Positions 2,847-34,056 of a stretch of DNA of 39,564 nucleotides are shown here, piece after piece. Under the pieces are notes generated by a model. It worked only from the letters and a program-made list of their open reading frames with translations, was not told where the DNA came from and made no database searches. Origin of the DNA: a virus (Duplodnaviria; Heunggongvirae; Uroviricota; Caudoviricetes); the IMG/VR virus record IMGVR_UViG_2684622542_000012. One strand, written 5' to 3'. Position numbers and translations under genes: made by a program. The first letter of the stretch is position 1. Every line of letters begins with the position of its first letter.

Positions 2847-5393
2847 TCATNNNNNNNNNNNNNNNNNNNNNNNNNNNNNNNNNNNNNNNNNNNNNNNNNN
2901 NNNNNNNNNNNNNNNNNNNNNNNNNNNNNNNNNNNNNNNNNNNNNNNNNNNNNNNNNNNNNNNNNNNNNNNNNNNNNNNNNNNNNNNNNNNNNNNNNNNN
3001 NNNNNNNNNNNNNNNNNNNNNNNNNNNNNNNNNNNNNNNNNNNNNNNNNNNNNNNNNNNNNNNNNNNNNNNNNNNNNNNNNNNNNNNNNNNNNNNNNNNN
3101 NNGCCGTAGTTTTCACGTCCATGATCCAGTGAAATTCAGGGATAATTTTGTCCGGACGGCACCGACACAAAATTGCTGTTTCAGGATCTTCCCAGTAAAT
3201 TGATGATTCAGCGTGTCCGGCGCTTTCAACAAGCCATTGCCCCAGCGGCAAAGCCATAACGCTCTGATACATGAGTTCAATTTTCCGGCCTTCTTCGGCA
3301 GTGATAACCGTTTTTCCTGTGCTTGCGCATTCCCTCAGAAACGCTTTCTCTTCTTCTTTTCCGGAGTTTGTCCGGCGGTTAAATTCAGGTGCTACGATAA
3401 AGCGGTTACTGAATTCTTCCGGCTCAAGTACCCGGCAGTGGAAAGCGGTTCCTAAATCGAGCGTTTTTGTCTTTGTGGTGTCCACGGGGGCATTTTTACG
3501 CCACAAATACAGTGCCGGAGTATCAGCAATGTCATCGAGCTGAGACTTACTGACACCGGGACCCGCGTGGTAATTCTCATTCGAAATTCCGTAATAAATA
3601 CCTGGCTCTATGTCTTCTACGATTACGGGATCTGCGACTTCGCCAGTTTCATCACTGCAATCGCGATGCGGATCGCTGCCAGCATTCTCATTGTGCGGAT
3701 GTTCAGCGCCTTCCATTTCCTCCGGATCATTTTCCTTAGCTTCAACCTGACTCTCTTCATCGAATGTTTCCTGGTATGTTGCGTCGCCCATCACCGCACC
3801 ACAGTCAGGGCAGTTATCCCCGCCAGTCTGGCCGCAGGCATTGCAGGCTATTTCCGGTTCCTGTTGCACTACTGGCTCAGGTTGATTCATATCCGGGCTG
3901 GTTTTTTCCGTTTCTGGCTGGTTCTGGTACACACAATCGCGAGTCTGGATCCCCTTTACCCATTTCGGATCGTTCGGGTCGCTAATTCCGTCAACAAATT
4001 CACCACGTGATGCAGCAAGCAATTTATCGGCATCGACAGGATTTTTTGATGGAATGTTTTTCCGGGCTTCATGGAGTTCTGCCCGCAGTTCCTGATATTT
4101 CGCATCAACAGAATTTACCTGTGACTGAGCATCCAGCGGCTGCGTGTCCTGATGATGTTCAGTTGCGTCCGGTTCCATTGTTTCAGCCTCTCCCTGTTCA
4201 ACTGCCGTTGTTCCAGATGGTTGCGGTTTTTCTTCATCATCCTGTTTTCCTTCTTCTGTTACTCGCTGCGGCATCGGGGCAGAGGAGCGACCGCAGGCAA
4301 TATCCACGATTTCCGGATCAGGGTTGGCATGATCGGTTTCAGTCAGTACTTTGTTCAGATATTCAGTGACGTGCGCGGGGATGACCTCGATCCCAATTGG
4401 TGCTTCTTTTACGGACGCAACCACGATGGCGCGGGAATAATCCAGCCCGCCAGGCATGGTGATGAATTTGTCGCGGAAAACAGAAAAGGGCGGTTTATTT
4501 TCAGCGATAATTTCCTCAATGCGTTTAGCGTGTGCCGGATGAAGGTTATAGATGTCCAGATCCATTGAACGGGCCAGTACGCCAGTGGCTACGTCCCGCG
4601 CCAGTGACGTCAGATCGTGTACGAAACCTTCGCCGCGATCGGTGAGGTTTCCGCCGCCAGCATTAGCACCGGAAGCCGTGCGAGTGATGTGTGAAACACG
4701 ATTACCCTTCATCCACTCTTTTGTCAGCAGTCCTCGATCGGTGTAGTCAGCGTTCAGGTATGCTTCGAAAAAAGCAGTTATCAGTCCCAGGTTTGAATTA
4801 CCAGGATTAGGGAAAACTTTGTCAGTGTCACGAACCAGTTTGTGGAGTTCGCGAATTTCCAGCGGGTCGAGCAGGCTGGTTTTGTGGGAAACAGCCAGGG
4901 CAGTAACAGCCGGTAGTTCTTCAGCCCGAGCAATGTGTAATGCCTGGAGTCCGTCGCGTGAAACGTGCGTTACCGGTTTTTCGCTGCCGTGTTGAGCAAG
5001 CCAACGAATGGGCAGTTCCTGGCCAGAAATTGGGAGTAGCATATTCTCCTCAATCTCAGTCATGTCTTCGCCGTTGACGTTGGTATTGCCTTGATAGTGA
5101 GCGTTGTCTGGTGCTGCTCCCGGTTTTAGTTCCCATGTCATGGAGTCTTTGCTGAGTTGATAGCGTTCACTCCAGGTAAAATCGATCTCACCTTCAGCGG
5201 GCAGGTCATTAACGACAGGAAAATTCGTGGCAACAGCTTTAAAATAGCTGCTCAGTTTTTTACCTGACTTAACGATCAGGTAGTCCAGAGTGGCACAGGT
5301 CGATTCAAAATCGTTGCTTGCCCACAGGACGACGTCAGGTTCACCGGATGATTTTTTCGCTTTCCGTAACAGGAAGAGTGGTTTTGTGCTCAT
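2847..5393 (-). CDS. recE: RecE exonuclease VIII; C-terminal part lies in masked N-run 2851-3102
   Basis: Long minus-strand [44 protein letters not shown]... with acidic linker and C-terminal nuclease region ([24 protein letters not shown]...). Overlaps recT start as in the recET operon. C-terminus unreadable because of Ns. Confidence 0.85.
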
Positions 5394-11765: not shown

Positions 11766-11903
11766 ACGTTACTAGATCAAAGAGCATTAGTTCATATGTA
11801 AATTGACATTTTTCTGGCACAGGGGAGAGCTAGCGTGGTTGTCCGCTTTGTGCCAATAGCGGACATTGCTGGCTCATGGTATGTTAGTTTAAGGAGGCAG
11901 GTT

Positions 11904-12926
11904 ATGCCCTGTATTTCGCTGTGGTATAATAGTTGCGCAATTGATACAAGGGAGCGTTACATCGTGAAAATTGTTTTCGAGGTTAATGGAAAGAAAGTTC
12001 CACTAAAATCTTTAAAATACATAAGCAAAAAAGATCAACTCGAAGTAATGAAAAACTGGTTCTTTGAAAACTTTGAAGATCCGGCAAATGCTTGTCCGTA
12101 TGAAAGTAGAGAAGGTGGCTATGCTTACATATATGGCGGGCCGTATGATGCGAGCGAAGAACTACAATCCATCTTCGGTCAATATGTTAAATCTGAGTAT
12201 ATTGAGGAATTAGTAGATGAATTACAAACACAATGTTTTGACTGGTCTGGAAACTCAAATAATATAGATGATTGGTACGATGATGATATCTACGACGCTG
12301 TAACGTCTTCCGGTAATCCGTATTTAAAATTCATTGATAATATCGATAAAATAAAAAAACTTGCAAAAGATAAAACTGAACAACAGCAAAAAAACCACTT
12401 GCTTAGTTTGCTCTACACGAATGTTATTACAGCTTTGGAAACGCTTTATGTTGAGCTATTCATTAATTCTATAGAGAAAGATGATGTCTACATAGCCAAT
12501 TGTATAGAAAAAGGTAAGACTGAATTTAAAGTAAGCAAAGATATTGCTGCGTTGCCTTTCAAGGGTGAACCCATCGAGAAAATTAGGGGAGAGCTAATCA
12601 GGTCAATCAAGGAACACTTGATCAGTGCAAGCTGGCATAGCACTAAAAAGGTAATCGACCGCTATGAAGCTACATTCGATATAAAAGTACAAAAAGACTG
12701 TCCGATAGAAGCTATTGAATTGGCAACCCTCAATCGAAATCACTTAGTGCATCGTGGTGGAAAGGATAAAGAAGGGAACCTCGTAGTGATTACAGACCAG
12801 GATCTTGAAACGCTGATTGAAAATGCATCGAACCTGGCAATTATGCTCTACAACAGTTTAAATGTAGCAACGAATAAAACCACCATTTTGCAACCAGATG
12901 ACAAACCGTTCATTCATGAATTTTAA
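11904..12926 (+). CDS. Hypothetical protein A of AT-rich accessory cassette (about 340 aa)
   Basis: Strong RBS ttTAAGGAGGcaggttATG at 11904. Alternative GTG start at 11964 preceded by aagggag and an extended -10-like TGgTATAAT at about 11922-11930. Visibly AT-rich, Lys/Asn/Ile-rich coding. No family recognised. Confidence 0.55.
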   Translation: MPCISLWYNSCAIDTRERYIVKIVFEVNGKKVPLKSLKYISKKDQLEVMKNWFFENFEDPANACPYESREGGYAYIYGGPYDASEELQSIFGQYVKSEYIEELVDELQTQCFDWSGNSNNIDDWYDDDIYDAVTSSGNPYLKFIDNIDKIKKLAKDKTEQQQKNHLLSLLYTNVITALETLYVELFINSIEKDDVYIANCIEKGKTEFKVSKDIAALPFKGEPIEKIRGELIRSIKEHLISASWHSTKKVIDRYEATFDIKVQKDCPIEAIELATLNRNHLVHRGGKDKEGNLVVITDQDLETLIENASNLAIMLYNSLNVATNKTTILQPDDKPFIHEF

Positions 12927-12941
12927 TAGCGCAGGTCATAC

Positions 12942-13943
12942 ATGGATATTCGCACACGAAAGACAAAATTTTTAGAGTCGTTAGATTCAACTGAAGTGAT
13001 ACGCAAAGCAGTAAGTCTCGCTATAGATTGCATTATTGATAATCATAATAGTAATGAAGATACCCCCTTAGTTATTACCAGCTATGATGATCTCTGTAGA
13101 ATCCAGGTGCTAAATTATGTACAGGAGTTTTGCGAAGCTGCATTCCCTGATATGGATGAATATTACTTTAGTCCTAACATACTTCGCATCAACGGCAAGA
13201 CTAGTGAAGAAGCTTGTATTAACTTAATTAAACTCTTAAGAAGTACAAAAGGCATGCTATTCTGGTCCGATGCCCCATCGTGGTTCGCTAGCCTCCCCGA
13301 CGGATTATTCCATGTTGTTAACATTGATCAAAAAATCGTTACTCGCGGCCTTAATAAGAAAAACTCTAAGCCGACAATAATCAATAAAGATTACAGTGTA
13401 GATACACTACTATCAGAGCTATTTTTGAATGGCGCACACATGGAGCAACCCAACGTACACAACGTTTCTGAGGGAAACATGAAGTTCTATGATGAATGCC
13501 ATGCTGGATTAATCAGACCAATACCCGCTCCAATAGGCGCGTCATACGATGAAGAGATCACAATTAATTCTCCAGATTGGCAAAAGCTCGCGTGTGTAGC
13601 TTTACGCCGCTATCAGTCGAAGGAATGTCATGACGGAATGCAATGGGATACAACCGATCATGGTTGGACTGATGTAATCGCGTATCCATTCGTCGAAGAA
13701 ATACAATCAATGGATAATAGTGGTTATCGACAATGTTTAGTTGGGCTGGTCACAATAAACAATTCAAATGCAAATTCTCCGTACCTATCTACCGTTTGGA
13801 TACATCCATTTTATCGCAGGAGAGGGTTATTAAGTAAGTTATGGCCAAAATTACAAGAGTTATATGGAAGTAACTTCGAAATTGAGCGACCTAATGAAAA
13901 TATGAAAGCATTTCTGAAAAGTGCGAAACACGCAGATTACTAA
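12942..13943 (+). CDS. Hypothetical protein B of AT-rich cassette with GNAT-acetyltransferase-like C-terminal motif
   Basis: 333-aa ORF 15 bp after protein A. C-terminal segment ...QCLVGLVTINNSNANSPYLSTVWIHPFYRRRGLLSKLWPKLQELYG resembles the GNAT motif-A strand-helix (h-x-P-x-Y-R-x-x-G). AT-rich like gene A. Confidence 0.55.
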   Translation: MDIRTRKTKFLESLDSTEVIRKAVSLAIDCIIDNHNSNEDTPLVITSYDDLCRIQVLNYVQEFCEAAFPDMDEYYFSPNILRINGKTSEEACINLIKLLRSTKGMLFWSDAPSWFASLPDGLFHVVNIDQKIVTRGLNKKNSKPTIINKDYSVDTLLSELFLNGAHMEQPNVHNVSEGNMKFYDECHAGLIRPIPAPIGASYDEEITINSPDWQKLACVALRRYQSKECHDGMQWDTTDHGWTDVIAYPFVEEIQSMDNSGYRQCLVGLVTINNSNANSPYLSTVWIHPFYRRRGLLSKLWPKLQELYGSNFEIERPNENMKAFLKSAKHADY

Positions 13944-14496
13944 TTTATGAATCAGTCTGTGGAGTTAGGGTTGGTGTGAACAAGTAGGGTAAGAGCCTCA
14001 ACGTGATGCTATGCCGACCTGCTCCCTGAGAATTCACACAGAAGGCTGCTAGCAATGTCTGCAGATCGCTCAAAGCGGACTAAAATGTTGGCTTGTTTCT
14101 GACTTAGAGCATTTAAGGAAGTGCTGGTGGTGACTGGTTGTTGTGTTCCATTTCTACAGAATAAAATCACAGAAACTATACCCAATAGTTGTATTGAATC
14201 ACTGACGAGACAGCCTCATATTTATCAGGACTGGTGTGCGTCTAATACAGGGGGTTGTCGTGCTGGTTCTCAAATGTGCGCTGGCTATTGCGGCTGTAAT
14301 GGCAATTTATTGTCTTGCTGTTGTTCTTATGGAGCGGCTTTCTGATTGATTACATACTGGCTAGAAAAAAGGTGTTACCTTGGTTTATCTTTGTCCGGCA
14401 AGGTGCGCTCATTAATCTTAAGTAAATTTATTGCTCAAGTATTCAGATTACTTCTTATGGTTGAAGTCTCCTGTCAATGTAGAACCAATATATTTA

Positions 14497-14533
14497 CAAA
14501 AATGAGACCCGTCGGGGATAGCCCTGCCGGGTC
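14497..14533 (-). terminator. Putative intrinsic terminator for the yeaR-like gene
   Basis: On the minus strand: agacccggcagggctatccccgacgggtct followed by cattttt, just downstream of the stop at 14564-14566. Confidence 0.5.
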
Positions 14534-14563
14534 TGACTGTTAAAGCATTTTTAATATGATCAT

Positions 14564-14902
14564 CTATTTTTTGGTGCTATAGACTTTTTCGCCCGAAAAG
14601 TCTGGAGCGACCCAAAAGTTAATATTAAACTGAGCATCATCGCTTAGTTCAACACGGTGCCAGTATTGTGGTGGGCTTGTTGCAAAAGCGCCAGCATTAA
14701 TGACTACTTTTATCTCCGGTTCAGTAGCATTCTCATCAGTAAAACCATAATATGTTACAGTGCCTTCCATTACGCACAACTGCCCAAAAACACCTGCTGC
14801 TGTATTATGATGTGTTAATAACGCTGAAGGTACGTTCTCTTTTGTGAAGAACGGAGTTGAGCGTTTGATTACCCAATCTTTAGGAATTCTCTTGTGTGTC
14901 AT
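14564..14902 (-). CDS. YeaR-like DUF1971 protein (TehB N-terminal-like domain)
   Basis: MTHKRIPKDWVIKRSTPFFTKENVPS...LCVMEGTVTYYGFTDENATEPE...AGAFATSPPQYWHRVE...FNINFWVAP follows the E. coli YeaR pattern as I recall it (RSTPFW...VMHG.V.Y.G..DE..EP...AG.FA..PP..WH...FNI.F.VAP). GGAGG Shine-Dalgarno before ATG at 14902. Opposite orientation to surrounding phage genes. Confidence 0.7.
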   Translation of the reverse strand: MTHKRIPKDWVIKRSTPFFTKENVPSALLTHHNTAAGVFGQLCVMEGTVTYYGFTDENATEPEIKVVINAGAFATSPPQYWHRVELSDDAQFNINFWVAPDFSGEKVYSTKK

Positions 14903-15715
14903 AACCACCTCCTCCAAAACATGCATTAAAAATGCATCTTTTGGAGGGTTATGTCAAGCTGTTATGAAACACATAATTGATATGTTGATTAGAGGAGAAG
15001 ATAGAATAAATATGGTTGTTTTTCGTATAACTATTTGTTTTACTTTTAGTTTATGCATTCTGTGTGTTAGGAATAAGTTATTAAAGTTTAATCAAAAAAT
15101 CTCGATGTAGTCCACATAGATTACTGTTACTGAACCTTATTGTGTGTATTAGTTGTGTTCTGAAATTTCAGCTTAATTATTTATGATGTATTTTTTAACG
15201 ATAAATATTTTCCCAGGATACCTTTACTGTGTATATAAATAAATTATATACGCATAAATAATGTAAAGGCGTCCTTTTAGATATATCTTATCAAATGTTA
15301 ATGACTTGAGTGGGAAATATGATTCCAGCAACTTATCATGTGGCTACTTTATAAAAATAATGCCCATATAAAACAACAAGCGAAAAGGATTACGGATAAA
15401 AAAGGAGCGAGATGTGCGAACTTGTTATTTTCCATGTTTAACCACCTTAAATAATTGATGATGACGGGATGATTGCATCTGTAATGCTTTTATTGAAATG
15501 TTATGATAAAAAAGAACTTTTGCATAACATTAAAATGTAATTTATCTAATCGTTTTTAATAATAAGTGTCGTATTTCTATCCTTGTACCAGCTATTTGAT
15601 ATGTAGTGTTTGTTCATGCTATGTGGGGCTTTACACCATAGCCAGTTTATTTATACTTTATTCGTCAGCCTGAACAACTGGCATCTGCTGCGCTGCGCCA
15701 TCGAGAGATTGAGAA

Positions 15716-16315
15716 ATGGCGCATATACAACTGGTCAAACAAACCTCTTCTGGTTTACTTCTCCCGGCGACGCCGGAGAGTTGCGATTTTCTGCATCAAA
15801 TCAAAATAGGTGAGTGGATACACGCAGACTTTAAGCGTGTGCGTAACTACGCATTCCACAAGCGTTTTTTCAAACTCCTGCAACTGGGATTCGATTACTG
15901 GACTCCGGTCGGTGGGGCGATCACGCCTCGCGAACGAGAACTGCTGTCTGGTTTCGTTGATTACCTGTGCGAATCAGTTGGTCGGGAACACACGCCAGCC
16001 CTGAGTGATGCCGCAGAGCAATACCTTAACACCGTTGCGACTCGTAGAACCCGGGATACGGCGTTGCTAAAGTCGTTTGAGGCTTTCCGCGAGTGGGTAA
16101 CCATTCAGGCCGGATTTTACACCGAGCATATTTATCCGGACGGTAGCCGTGGGCGTCGGGCAAAATCCATCGCTTTTGCGAATATGGACGAAGTCGAGTT
16201 TCAGCAGGTTTATAAATCTGTACTGAATGTGCTGTGGAACTGGATTCTGTTCCGTAAATTCTCCTCTCAGGAGGAAGTTGAAAATGTGGCCGCACAACTA
16301 CTGGAGTTTGCGTAA
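15716..16315 (+). CDS. DUF1367 protein (YbcN-like nin-region protein)
   Basis: MAHIQLVKQTSSGLLLPATPESCDFLHQIKIGEWIHADFKRVRNYAFHKRFFKLLQLGFDYWTP... resembles the YbcN family found upstream of Q in DLP12-type prophages. Confidence 0.7.
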   Translation: MAHIQLVKQTSSGLLLPATPESCDFLHQIKIGEWIHADFKRVRNYAFHKRFFKLLQLGFDYWTPVGGAITPRERELLSGFVDYLCESVGREHTPALSDAAEQYLNTVATRRTRDTALLKSFEAFREWVTIQAGFYTEHIYPDGSRGRRAKSIAFANMDEVEFQQVYKSVLNVLWNWILFRKFSSQEEVENVAAQLLEFA

Positions 16316-17251: not shown

Positions 17252-18128
17252 ACGTCAGGAAAGCAGGGGAGAATGCTGCTAGTTGGGCAACTGGTCTTTC
17301 TGCTCCAAATTATAACAGAGACCAGTTATAGTTTCGGTGCTGTGTTTTTTTTACAATATTGTGATAACACATTGCTGGCGGGAGTTTTGATATTTCTTGG
17401 CAGGGGCTGATGATGCGTTATCCTGATGTCGTCAACTCATATAAAATGAGATGAGAGATCATTGCAGGGTGGTTTGTAATNNNNNNNNNNNNNNNNNNNN
17501 NNNNNNNNNNNNNNNNNNNNNNNNNNNNNNNNNNNNNNNNNNNNNNNNNNNNNNNNNNNNNNNNNNNNNNNNNNNNNNNNNNNNNNNNNNNNNNNNNNNN
17601 NNNNNNNNNNNNNNNNNNNNNNNNNNNNNNNNNNNNNNNNNNNNNNNNNNNNNNNNNNNNNNNNNNNNNNNNNNNNNNNNNNNNNNNNNNNNNNNNNNNN
17701 NNNNNNNNNNNNNNNNNNNNNNNNNNNNNNNNNNGTATGATGAGTATTTTTTGTTTTCCTTTTTTCCAGTCATCTGATGATGACCTGCTTCTTTTTAATC
17801 CGGATCGACATCAGTTTTTTAAGATAATTCCTGCGAGTTATATGCATAAATGCCACAAACTCCGCATTTTATGTGGTTGGGAGTTGCCGGGCGCGCAGTG
17901 AGTTTGCTAAGAAAACTCCTGCATGGTGAATCCCCCTGTGCGGTGGGGTGATACCATTAACCTTTTCTGTCGCCGACAGGTATCACGAACATTTTGTTCA
18001 CCGGGAGGCACCCGGCACCATGCACTTCAATAGATTCTCTCCACATTATGGATATTCTTTCAGAATATCCCACGCAGACTTTGTGTAAATGTTAACAAAT
18101 GTGCGTTTTATTTGATCTGATTCGCTGT

Positions 18129-18616: not shown

Positions 18617-18937
18617 TATTTATTGTTTTGTAATAAACGGTTTCGGCTTAGGTTTGTTCTGACNNNNNNNNNNNNNNNNNNNNNNNNNNNNNNNNNNNNN
18701 NNNNNNNNNNNNNNNNNNNNNNNNNNNNNNNNNNNNNNNNNNNNNNNNNNNNNNNNNNNNNNNNNNNNNNNNNNNNNNNNNNNNNNNNNNNNNNNNNNNN
18801 NNNNNNNNNNNNNNNNNNNNNNNNNNNNNNNNNNNNNNNNNNNNNNNNNNNNNNNNNNNNNNNNNNNNNNNNNNNNNNNNNNNNNNNNNNNNNNNNNNNN
18901 NNNNNNNNNNNNNNNNNNNNNNNNNNNNNNNNNNNNN

Positions 18938-20155: not shown

Positions 20156-20687
20156 GCAGGGTAACCGCGATTATCTCCGCTCTGGTTATNNNNNNNNNNN
20201 NNNNNNNNNNNNNNNNNNNNNNNNNNNNNNNNNNNNNNNNNNNNNNNNNNNNNNNNNNNNNNNNNNNNNNNNNNNNNNNNNNNNNNNNNNNNNNNNNNNN
20301 NNNNNNNNNNNNNNNNNNNNNNNNNNNNNNNNNNNNNNNNNNNNNNNNNNNNNNNNNNNNNNNNNNNNNNNNNNNNNNNNNNNNNNNNNNNNNNNNNNNN
20401 NNNNNNNNNNNNNNNNNNNNNNNNNNNNNNNNNNNNNNNNNNNNNCGAAAGCTGAAAATGATGCTCTGCGTGATGATGTTGCCGCTGGTCGTCGTCGGTT
20501 GCACATCAAAGCAGTCTGTCAGTCAGTGCGTGAAGCCACCACCGCCTCCGGCGTGGATAATGCAGCCTCCCCCCGACTGGCAGACACCGCTGAACGGGAT
20601 TATTTCACCCTCCGGGAACGACTGGTAATGATGCAGGCCCAACTTGAAGGTGCTCAGCAATACATAACCGAGCAGTGTTTAAAGTAA
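20152..20687 (+). CDS. Rz-like inner-membrane spanin; middle in N-run 20190-20445
   Basis: Start [12 protein letters not shown]... overlaps the endolysin stop. C-terminal coiled-coil part after the gap (...[26 protein letters not shown]...[17 protein letters not shown]). Frames before and after the gap differ, so the gap length is not the true length. Confidence 0.7.
20458..20628 (+). CDS. Rz1-like outer-membrane lipoprotein spanin embedded in Rz (+1 frame)
   Basis: [56 protein letters not shown]: lipobox VVGC, proline-rich, nested in Rz. Confidence 0.65.
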   Translation: MMLCVMMLPLVVVGCTSKQSVSQCVKPPPPPAWIMQPPPDWQTPLNGIISPSGNDW

Positions 20688-22419: not shown

Positions 22420-22860
22420 ATGAGCGAGAAATTAAAGATAGTCTATCGCCCATTACAAGAATTGTCACCGTATGCGCACAACGCCAGGACGCACAGTACT
22501 GAGCAGGTGGCACAACTGGTAGAAAGTATTAAGCAATTCGGCTGGACTAATCCGGTNNNNNNNNNNNNNNNNNNNNNNNNNNNNNNNNNNNNNNNNNNNN
22601 NNNNNNNNNNNNNNNNNNNNNNNNNNNNNNNNNNNNNNNNNNNNNNNNNNNNNNNNNNNNNNNNNNNNNNNNNNNNNNNNNNNNNNNNNNNNNNNNNNNN
22701 NNNNNNNNNNNNNNNNNNNNNNNNNNNNNNNNNNNNNNNNNNNNNNNNNNNNNNNNNNNNNNNNNNNNNNNNNNNNNNNNNNNNNNNNNNNNNNNNNNNN
22801 NNNNNNNNNNNNNNNNNNNNNNNNNNNNNNNNNNNNNNNNNNAAATTGATGAACTGTTGA
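22420..22860 (+). CDS. ynaK: ParB-like nuclease domain protein (YnaK-like); middle in N-run 22557-22842
   Basis: N-terminus MSEKLKIVYRPLQELSPYAHNARTHSTEQVAQLVESIKQFGWTNP has the ParB N-terminal signature (L.PY..NAR.H). Rest masked. Confidence 0.6.
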   Translation: MSEKLKIVYRPLQELSPYAHNARTHSTEQVAQLVESIKQFGWTNPXXXXXXXXXXXXXXXXXXXXXXXXXXXXXXXXXXXXXXXXXXXXXXXXXXXXXXXXXXXXXXXXXXXXXXXXXXXXXXXXXXXXXXXXXXXXXXXXKLMNC

Positions 22861-25456: not shown

Positions 25457-26748
25457 TGTGCCTCAGGCGCGATTTCTTTCAATGCCCCATAAATTTAAAG
25501 CCTATATTGCTGGTTTTGGCTCGGGCAAAACATGGGTTGGGTGTGGCGGCATATGCAAGGGGATTTGGGAGCATCCAGGTATAAATCAGGGATATTTTGC
25601 GCCAACGTATCCCCAAATTCGCGATATTTTTTACCCTACAGTGGAAGAAGTTGCTGCTGACTGGGGATTGAACGTAAAAATTAATGAGGGAAATAAAGAG
25701 GTTCACTTTTATTACGGACGCCAGTATCGGGGAACCACTATCTGCAGATCGATGGAGAAGCCACAAACGATCGTCGGTTTCAAAATTGGTAATGCGTTGG
25801 TGGATGAACTGGACATTTTGCCGAAGGAAAAAGCCAGAACGGCGTGGCGCAAGATAATTGCACGTATGCGTTATAAGATTGATGGACTTCGCAACGGTAT
25901 TGACGTTACAACCACGCCGGAAGGATTCAAATTTGTCTACGAGCAGTTTGTTAAAGCCGTGCGTGAAAAAACAGAGCTGGCCTCACTGTATGGTCTGGTG
26001 CAGGCATCTACTTTCGATAATGAAAAGAACCTGCCAGCAGATTACATTCCTTCGCTTCTTGAATCATACCCTCCAGAGCTGATTAAAGCCTATCTTCGAG
26101 GACAGTTTACTAACCTGACAAGTGGTACTGTTTACCATCAGTTTGACCGGAAACTGAATAATTGCGAAGAAGTGGAGCAGCCAGGGGAGCCGATTTATAT
26201 TGGGATGGATTTTAACGTTGGAAAGATGGCGGGAATCGTCCATGTGCTGCGTTTGGGGCTTCCATGTGCGGTAACTGAAATCATCAATGCCTACGATACG
26301 CCGGATATGATCCGCATCATTAAAGAACGCTTCTGGCTGTATGATGGGAATGATTACCGGAANNNNNNNNNNNNNNNNNNNNNNNNNNNNNNNNNNNNNN
26401 NNNNNNNNNNNNNNNNNNNNNNNNNNNNNNNNNNNNNNNNNNNNNNNNNNNNNNNNNNNNNNNNNNNNNNNNNNNNNNNNNNNNNNNNNNNNNNNNNNNN
26501 NNNNNNNNNNNNNNNNNNNNNNNNNNNNNNNNNNNNNNNNNNNNNNNNNNNNNNNNNNNNNNNNNNNNNNNNNNNNNNNNNNNNNNNNNNNNNNNNNNNN
26601 NNNNNNNNNNNNNCAGGTCTGGGATGAGAAGGGGGAGCCTGATAAAAAATCTGGCAATGATCACCCGAATGATGCCGGAGGTTATTTCATCGTTAAGCAA
26701 TTCCCTATTGTCAAACCGACCGGAAGAGTCACATCACTTCGGATTTAA
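25437..26748 (+). CDS. Terminase large subunit; part in N-run 26363-26613
   Basis: Walker A YIAGFGSGKTWVGCGG near the N-terminus. RBS gtAAGGAGtg upstream. C-terminal segment continues after the gap to stop at 26746-26748. Confidence 0.85.
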
Positions 26749-33157: not shown

Positions 33158-34056
33158 GTGAGTTCAGGTGCAAAGGTTATCTCGGCATTTATCCGGGAGA
33201 CGGTTGCAGGCACTACGCCAGCAAGTGGTGACTGGAGTTTATTAAAACGCACAAGCTGGGGAGTAAAANNNNNNNNNNNNNNNNNNNNNNNNNNNNNNNN
33301 NNNNNNNNNNNNNNNNNNNNNNNNNNNNNNNNNNNNNNNNNNNNNNNNNNNNNNNNNNNNNNNNNNNNNNNNNNNNNNNNNNNNNNNNNNNNNNNNNNNN
33401 NNNNNNNNNNNNNNNNNNNNNNNNNNNNNNNNNNNNNNNNNNNNNNNNNNNNNNNNNNNNNNNGCTCATGGAAAATGCAGATCCCTAACGACGGCGATAT
33501 TACAGCGACCGTAACCTTTGCCGGACTGGACTGGGAATCAAAGGCCGATGATACGAATTTTATCAAAGGCGAACCTGTGGATAGTGCAGGAAAGCTACGT
33601 TATTCGTTTAAGGAGGTTTCAGCAGTAAGCCTGAATGGTGTTGCCGGAGGTAACGGTTTTTGTATCGACAGTTTTGATATTCAGTTCGATAACAAACTCC
33701 AGACACAGCGTTGTATCGGGACTGGCTCGCCTTATGCAGGAGCAAATATTCCGACTACTTTTACACCGTCCGGTACGGTGACGCTTTCATGGTCTAAAGC
33801 CGCGTGGGAAATCTGGAGTAAAACACTGACTGGAGAAACAGTTCCGTTCAGCTTCACGCTTTCGAATGGAGAGGGGGCATACACTTTCAGTTTCCCGAAG
33901 GTTCAGGTGTCAGGTGAATGGCCTGATGGGGGTAATAGCGACATTATCCAGGTTCAATTGAGCATTACCGCAGCAGATGAAGCACCTACGATAACCAGAA
34001 AAAAAAATTCCCCGGCTGCCGTGATCGCAAAAGCCAGTGCTGAGGCGATTAGTTGA
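33158..34056 (+). CDS. Putative major tail (tube) protein; interrupted by N-run 33269-33463
   Basis: N-terminal fragment MSSGAKVISAFIRETVAGTTPASGDWSLLKRTSWGVK..., then a Thr/Ser/Gly-rich beta-type sequence after the gap to stop at 34056. Frames differ across the gap. Confidence 0.55.

Follow-up and report, generated by a model that had tools for sequence, protein, structure and literature searches.

A prophage-borne DUF1971 gene of the STM1808 type with a predicted NsrR operator in Rac-type prophages of Escherichia coli

The DUF1971 gene described here lies on the minus strand of the Caudoviricetes record IMGVR_UViG_2684622542_000012 of IMG/VR (39,564 nucleotides, analysed over its full length and hereafter called the window), and its closest described counterparts are STM1808 of Salmonella Typhimurium, yeaR of Escherichia coli and the protein of PDB entry 3DL3. 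STM1808 is reportedly repressed by NsrR, a host sensor of nitric oxide (NO), and its product is said to bind zinc, to need residues H32 and H82, and to support growth under nitrosative stress and in mice. The yeaR gene, paired with yoaG and represented by the structure PDB 3BB6, is also an NsrR target with an 11-1-11 site and is reportedly activated by NarL as well. PDB 3DL3, named 'tellurite resistance protein B', holds a DUF1971-only chain of 119 residues and is presumably a structural-genomics entry without an assigned function. In published work, STM1808 has been counted in the NsrR regulon (PMC7527575, PMC7082413), with a role in virulence given by one of these two sources, tehB homologues have been predicted by comparative analysis to be NsrR targets in enterobacteria and Photobacterium (PMC1274295), and a Yersinia gene named tehB was induced by products of activated macrophages, an effect that its authors credit mainly to NO (bioRxiv 2026.03.25.714363). 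As mobile cargo, the locus can be compared with the lambdoid morons, such as bor and lom of phage lambda and sodCI of Gifsy-2.

The present gene shared with STM1808 its approximate length (112 against 113 amino acids, aa), 77-79% identity, both histidines, a monocistronic arrangement and a predicted NsrR operator placed just before the ATG and overlapping the putative -10 element. It differed in its location, STM1808 being chromosomal next to dsbB whereas the present gene occupied a cargo slot of a Rac prophage at ttcA, and in the gap between operator and ATG (15 nt here, 27 nt in Salmonella). It is probably, at a rough probability of 0.7, an NsrR-repressed and NO-inducible STM1808-type moron of Rac prophages at ttcA, which would have been captured together with its native promoter/operator and terminator. 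Its elements are listed below.

14564-14902, minus strand: DUF1971 gene of 112 aa, STM1808 / PDB 3DL3 subfamily, Pfam PF09313, with its ATG at 14902
14908-14913, minus strand: Shine-Dalgarno (SD) sequence AGGAGG, seen in the sequence itself, with 5 nt between it and the ATG
14918-14940, no strand assigned: predicted NsrR operator, an inverted repeat of 11-1-11 form, AAGATGCATTTTTAATGCATGTT on the gene strand, matrix score 27.8 bits
14925-14957, minus strand: inferred sigma-70 promoter with -35 TTGACA (14957-14952), a 17-bp spacer and CATTTT (14934-14929), from a relaxed scan
14497-14533, minus strand: intrinsic terminator of the gene, stem AGACCCG...CGGGUCU with an inner 3-bp stem, then CAUUUUUGU
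14365-15348, minus strand: approximate moron unit, running from the 3' flank through terminator, gene and promoter/operator into ~390 bp of AT-rich upstream DNA

The 112-aa product matched DUF1971 (PF09313) over profile positions 1-80 of 80, with an E-value of 2.3e-26 and 92 bits against a gathering cut-off of 23.1, and the profile search proposed in an earlier sequence-only reading of the window (the initial annotation) thus returned the expected family. The closest solved structure was PDB 3DL3 (E = 3.5e-59, residues 1-111), at about 80% identity by our own count on the alignment, and the YeaR structure 3BB6 was matched at E = 1.6e-24. Identities of 73-82% were found to single-domain DUF1971 proteins of Kluyvera, Leclercia, Citrobacter, Klebsiella, Raoultella, Salmonella, Vibrio, Aliivibrio and Photobacterium, and full-length identities of 77-82% to chromosomal genes of Kluyvera, Leclercia, Citrobacter, Klebsiella and Salmonella. 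The Salmonella copies (77% identity in Salmonella arizonae, 79% in S. enterica clusters) stood in the order nhaB-dsbB-gene-...-ycgN, and the gene next to dsbB is taken here to be STM1808, from the LT2 numbering (STM1806 nhaB, STM1807 dsbB). The Kluyvera orthologue was assigned to the chromosome because its neighbours were murQ/phosphotransferase system (PTS) and fimbrial genes. H32 and H82 were invariant in the orthologue alignment, at the same positions, and the prophage protein kept every residue that was invariant across genera. Judged by sequence, the gene is a member of the STM1808-type DUF1971 subfamily and not a YeaR orthologue. The initial annotation had described it as a close relative of YeaR/TehB-N; the family was right, while the closeness was not, as identity to E. 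coli YeaR was only 43% against 77-82% to STM1808-type orthologues.

The window was a full-length Rac-type lambdoid prophage of E. coli with intR at its left end. In complete genomes the same sequence adjoined ttcA, with xisR, ralR, recET, kilR, sieB, ydaSTUV and trkG around, and positions 14400-15800 were 100% identical in several chromosomes. The DUF1971 gene was the sole minus-strand gene of a rightward block extending from ~8181 to 38604, in line with the earlier remark that it runs opposite to the surrounding phage genes behind a GGAGG ribosome-binding site. A longer reading of 120 aa, from 14926, was rejected, since it would start inside the operator and without an SD, and since the orthologues all begin with MSH or MTH. 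RefSeq annotated the same 112-aa product (WP_000149055.1), and the gene is thus already known as one for a DUF1971 protein. The exact protein was present on at least 1000 contigs, and the gene was also found in the deposited phage genomes vB_EcoS-666R9, -673R7 and -613R10. All copies from E. coli and Shigella whose context was inspected lay in Rac at ttcA or in deposited phage genomes, this inspection covering 3 of the 464 E. coli carrier genomes described below. PADLOC returned no match for the gene or for the two upstream cargo genes.

The predicted operator (AACATGCATTAAAAATGCATCTT) was identical at 21 of 23 bases to the NsrR site of ytfE and ended 15 nt upstream of the ATG. Scores were obtained with a symmetrised matrix built from the CFT073 11-1-11 sites in Table 4 of PMC5320621, whose 27 rows gave 26 sites with the identical c0118/c0233 sequence entered once. 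The known CFT073 sites scored 8.7-30.6 in leave-one-out mode, with only ytfE above 27.8, and the second-best score in the 39.5-kb window was 13.8. None of 5000 dinucleotide-preserving shuffles of 14903-15715 reached 27.8 (maximum 25.2). Among the orthologue loci of other species, 54 of 80 had an NsrR site of at least 15 bits no more than 300 bp upstream of the gene, and all enterobacterial loci except one from Leclercia (L010, 12.2 bits) carried a site of 20-30 bits located 15-27 nt before the ATG, compared with a median best score of 11 bits in the remainder of these 12-kb loci. This distribution agrees with the older prediction for tehB homologues (PMC1274295). The site had gone unseen in the initial annotation, which had suggested that NsrR, Fnr and H-NS sites be sought in the AT-rich DNA upstream of the gene. 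Concerning the other regulators, no FNR site, NarL 7-2-7 site, NarL heptamer or Fur box was found within 210 nt upstream of the gene, and the promoter looks like a simple NsrR-repressed promoter, unlike that of yeaR.

Some of the orthologues showed a further element that the prophage copy did not have. A Fur-box-like sequence (e.g. GATAATGAGATTCATTATC) closely preceded the -35, ~40-70 nt ahead of the operator, in seven loci (L004, L005, L007, L011, L025, L056 and L074) belonging to Kluyvera, Pantoea, Enterobacter, Leclercia, Buttiauxella and Photobacterium, which hints at dual Fur/NsrR control in these orthologues.

Within the promoter, the -35 was a perfect TTGACA, CATTTT coincided with operator positions 7-12, and an alternative -10 was present at 14930-14925, reading TTTAAT in the window and TATAAT in most genomes. 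Both candidate hexamers were inside the operator and downstream of TTGACA, a geometry from which we infer the likely start. The same arrangement of a -35, a spacer of 17-18 bp and a -10 at operator positions 7-12 was observed in other genera, namely TTTACA-17-TATTTT in Kluyvera and Leclercia, TTGACG-17/18-CATATT in Klebsiella and Raoultella, and TTGCCT-18-TATATT in Citrobacter (own reading), with the same -10 at the same operator position in Salmonella. A consensus promoter/terminator scan gave no excess over shuffles, and its strict rules missed both the promoter and the terminator of the gene, the hairpin of the latter apparently because its loop exceeds the 3-8 nt limit of the scan.

In a lysogen, NsrR, the Fe-S repressor with which the host senses NO, would bind the 11-1-11 operator and thereby occlude both candidate -10 elements and the likely start of the sigma-70 promoter, which the operator overlaps. 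Inactivation of NsrR by NO would let the promoter fire, the short leader with its free AGGAGG would be translated, and the terminator at 14497-14533 would end a monocistronic transcript. The product may then aid growth under nitrosative stress, by analogy with Salmonella STM1808.

The stop codon was followed, on the gene strand, by a GC-rich hairpin (14505-14533) and then by CAUUUUUGU, as seen in sequence and fold, which bears out the intrinsic terminator placed at 14497-14533 by the initial annotation; phage vB_EcoS-666R9 kept a diverged homologous hairpin, with its T-run, after the gene. In related prophages that lacked the gene, 13944-14364 on the left and the sequence from ~15348 on the right were shared, with hok between, and the unit was therefore set at ~14365-15348. 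In another phage, an S8 peptidase gene occupied the slot and its terminator abutted the shared sequence. Overall, relatives filled the slot with hok, with rem, with the pair of an S8 peptidase and an AAA protein, or with a DUF262 protein accompanied by an AAA ATPase, and this polymorphism identifies the gene as cargo. No hok remnant was found in the window by tblastn of Hok. The moron promoter was present in 464 complete E. coli genomes and the adjacent backbone in 850. The view that this is an independently regulated cargo gene, already put forward in the initial annotation, is consistent with the self-contained promoter/operator and terminator and with the polymorphic slot. The lambdoid morons are alike in being small cargo genes with their own promoter and terminator, in presence or absence among related phages, in a differing base composition and in expression from the repressed prophage, which is predicted here; the present moron is unlike them in being apparently wired to the host sensor NsrR by an operator imported with the gene.

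The segment 13944-14364, common to the relatives in which hok comes next, was unannotated, and it contains a plus-strand open reading frame (ORF) at 14236-14349 for a very hydrophobic product of 37 aa, which was conserved, with one E-to-D change in locus L175. A 4.83-Mb assembly labelled DH5alpha (L202, NZ_CM135829.1) had a lambdoid prophage in which DUF262/AAA genes, hok and tRNA genes were present; its strain label looks doubtful, because such a prophage is not expected in a K-12 derivative.

The promoter segment occurred in 464 of 5426 complete E. coli genomes, 16 of them with the allele of the window, 362 at 95-99% identity and 86 at 90-95%. The two main alleles showed 10-14 differences over 1401 bp, of which 5-7 fell within 14912-14946, and a single base distinguished their genes; when more distant prophage types were compared, 14900-14949 was the most variable 50-nt bin of the gene-linked part. 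TTGACA was invariant in 12 alleles, and the -35, SD, ATG and terminator were kept in all alleles. The operator scored 27.8 bits in the window, 28.6 in a perfect-palindrome variant, 20.7 in the common allele, and 25.7 and 26.6 in distant types. Its centre, position 14929, which is unspecified in the 11-1-11 model, was T on the gene strand of the window, giving CATTTT, and A in other alleles, in which the final T of CATTTT is lost and TATAAT is made four bases downstream. This toggle and the other allele differences may reflect a tuning of expression.

Some of these results weigh against control of the gene by NsrR. The -10 of the window was weak, being either CATTTT or a TTTAAT without the A at -11. 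The promoter allele of the window was rare (16 of 464 carriers), and the common allele had a weaker operator (20.7 bits). Among the Vibrionaceae orthologues, most had no NsrR site by the E. coli matrix, a site being present in two Photobacterium loci, so that regulation by NsrR would be lineage-specific. In addition, the gene was not mentioned in the literature searched, and no published mention was found of its NsrR wiring, its STM1808 orthology, its promoter alleles or the neighbouring small ORF.

The tract upstream of the gene, 14927-15715, was as AT-rich as first reported, its 30.5% GC (45.5% in the window) being the lowest of 3149 N-free 789-bp segments. It had been treated as one upstream region of ~790 bp; only ~14941-15348 belonged to the moron, and 15349-15715 was phage backbone of the DUF1367-YbcO-Q-like type, found in 850 of 5426 complete E. 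coli genomes.

14958-15348, no strand assigned: AT-rich DNA travelling with the moron, 27% GC over 14960-15348

This segment of ~390 bp was present in every gene-carrying prophage type, with a 57-nt indel at ~15212, and had no Rfam match and no conserved ORF. Rfam searches with gathering thresholds on the window and in E-value mode on 14300-15900 gave nothing credible in the region. It is unlikely that the gene is mainly silenced by H-NS on the AT-rich tract and that the palindromic operator is incidental. Such silencing would fit the GC minimum of the window and one 9/10 motif match at 15539-15548, but the H-NS motif TCGATAAATT, one of the sites to be sought, showed no enrichment in the window (67 matches, with 53.5 ± 7.4 expected), over half of the tract consisted of phage backbone also found without the gene, and the operator was conserved in the GC-normal chromosomal settings of other genera. 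Silencing by H-NS, to which the AT-richness itself would point, would be compatible with control by NsrR, as the two are not mutually exclusive.

The operator was also the core of a longer symmetrical element.

14900-14954, minus strand: extended palindrome around the operator, arms 14911-14927/14931-14947, outer arms 14948-14954/14900-14906

The 17-nt inverted repeat was 94% complementary, and the outer arms (CATAACC / GGTTATG) took in the start codon. Folded as gene-strand RNA, the palindrome reached -26.5 kcal/mol (z = -5.75) with the SD and AUG buried. Three pairs were changed on both sides, the substitutions between alleles at 14915/14943, 14912/14946 and 14920/14938 being complementary. 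Paired cells amounted to 85.8% compared to 83.2% in shuffles, a level reached by 3 of 500 shuffles, and the covariation score was reached by 32 of 500; with closely related sequences, this covariation gives modest support and is treated as a lead only. The palindrome could accordingly be read as mainly an RNA element and not an NsrR operator, acting either as a hairpin that hides the SD and AUG or as an RNase or pause site for the rightward transcripts of the phage, and its stability, its paired changes and its reach well beyond the 23-bp operator would suit such a role. We consider this improbable, as the 5' arm is situated downstream of the invariant -35 but upstream of the -10, and would hence fall outside the transcript of this promoter, and as the flanks in the two types of chromosomal orthologue inspected (Kluyvera/Leclercia and Klebsiella) extend the palindrome by only a few nt, short of the SD (by eye). 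Both roles can coexist: since the 5' arm would be missing from the NsrR-controlled transcript and present in read-through transcripts from upstream, the hairpin possibly provides translational insulation of the gene against read-through.

The variability of the control region raises the question of whether the gene hitch-hikes neutrally or is decaying, to the advantage of neither host nor phage. The peak of variability in the 50-nt bin 14900-14949 and the differing strengths of the operator alleles could be taken in this sense, but the coding sequence hardly varied (a single change separated the two main alleles), the ORF was intact in the prophage types examined, and the protein combined its wide occurrence on contigs with all cross-genus invariant residues, next to a -35, SD, ATG and terminator kept in every allele; neutrality is thus very unlikely.

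That the gene is an equivalent of YeaR or TehB, i.e. a nitrate/NarL-activated yeaR-type gene or a tellurite-resistance methyltransferase, is suggested by the Pfam family shared with YeaR and by the name 'TehB family protein' on some RefSeq records, but is highly improbable given 43% identity to YeaR, a terminator directly after the gene and no yoaG partner, the lack of a NarL heptamer or 7-2-7 site within 210 nt upstream, and a score of 49 bits against a cut-off of 303 with the TehB equivalog model, of whose 289 positions only the N-terminal 96 were matched, which indicates that there is no methyltransferase domain.

If the gene is indeed an NsrR-repressed, NO-inducible moron, it would clearly exemplify prophage cargo that answers to a stress sensor of the host through an operator brought along by the cargo itself. 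Tolerance of NO in E. coli and Shigella would then vary between strains in part through this gene, whose promoter alleles differ in predicted strength, with a bearing on survival in the inflamed gut, the urinary tract and macrophages, and on the persistence of Rac.

In the backbone beyond the moron, four further features were distinguished.

15349-15435, minus strand: small unannotated ORF of 28 aa, MENNKFAHLAPFLSVILFACCFIWALFL, hydrophobic, in the backbone, with a strong SD (AAGGTGG) 6 nt upstream
15412-15441, plus strand: mini-ORF MCELVIFHV of the initial annotation, antisense to the 28-aa ORF and judged not to be a gene
15523-15566, no strand assigned: nearly invariant non-coding block CATAACATTAAAATGTAATTTATCTAATCGTTTTTAATAATAAG, 44 bp, AT-rich, conserved in types that are 62-71% identical over the segment
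15630-15657, plus strand: promoter-like TTTACA-16-TATACT preceding the DUF1367-YbcO-Q-like genes, the top hit (10/12) of the consensus scan

The initial annotation had seen no convincing ORF in 14927-15715, a statement that the conserved 28-codon minus-strand frame contradicts. This frame was intact in all 11 distinct DNA variants (80 viral contigs and phage 683R6), with 6, 7 and 17 variable columns by codon position and a ratio of nonsynonymous to synonymous polymorphism (pN/pS) of 0.12-0.43. Its product has a polar N-terminus and one hydrophobic segment of helix length. No match was found in Pfam, NCBIfam or PHROG, the exact 28-aa sequence was absent from a collection of 15 billion proteins and from the literature searched, and 15349-15435 was never annotated under the 850 genome matches. 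Because of its composition and its position beside the slot that holds hok in related prophages, the product may, as a guess, be a small peptide of the membrane or resemble a type I toxin. With its occurrence in ~850 complete genomes, the ORF is a candidate for the catalogue of E. coli small proteins.

Two plus-strand frames overlap this ORF. The MCELVIFHV frame does exist as described; it is on the wrong strand, had a pN/pS of 0.7-1.7, varied between 9 and 12 codons and lacked its ATG in locus L159. A 38-aa ORF at 15338-15454 was rejected, with a stop codon in L160-type loci and in 683R6 (own reading), and its low pN/pS is explained by wobble positions that coincide with those of the minus-strand ORF. 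The 44-bp block contains the quasi-palindrome ATAACATT-AA-AATGTAAT, located at 15526-15539, of which no second copy was found in the window, immunity region included. The promoter-like site at 15630-15657 was kept in 683R6 and in L160-type loci.

A broader picture joining the moron and the backbone can be drawn tentatively, although we hold it doubtful as a whole. Through Rac, ~8.5% of complete E. coli genomes would have acquired an STM1808-type NO-defence gene that is apparently missing from their own chromosome and would be plugged into the NsrR regulon; its control region would be actively tuned (clustered substitutions in 35 bp around the operator, the -10 toggle and a translation-blocking palindrome), and the backbone would hide a new gene for a 28-aa membrane peptide together with the invariant 44-bp element, which might form a toxin-like or regulatory module.

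Elsewhere in the window, seven masked runs of N of ~195-285 bp (2851-3102, 17481-17734, 18664-18937, 20190-20445, 22557-22842, 26363-26613 and 33269-33463) locally distorted ORF calls and GC profiles. Two AT-rich cargo genes on the plus strand at 11835-13943, matching phrog_17908 and phrog_16994, were preceded directly by IS2 in one genome and showed only weak sub-threshold family matches (HEPN/RES-NTD and GNAT); they may be an uncharacterised defence or accessory pair. Rfam also located the RalA antitoxin RNA at 1557-1735 on the plus strand, next to ralR, and the small RNA STnc100 at 17891-18077 on the plus strand, downstream of the Q-like gene.

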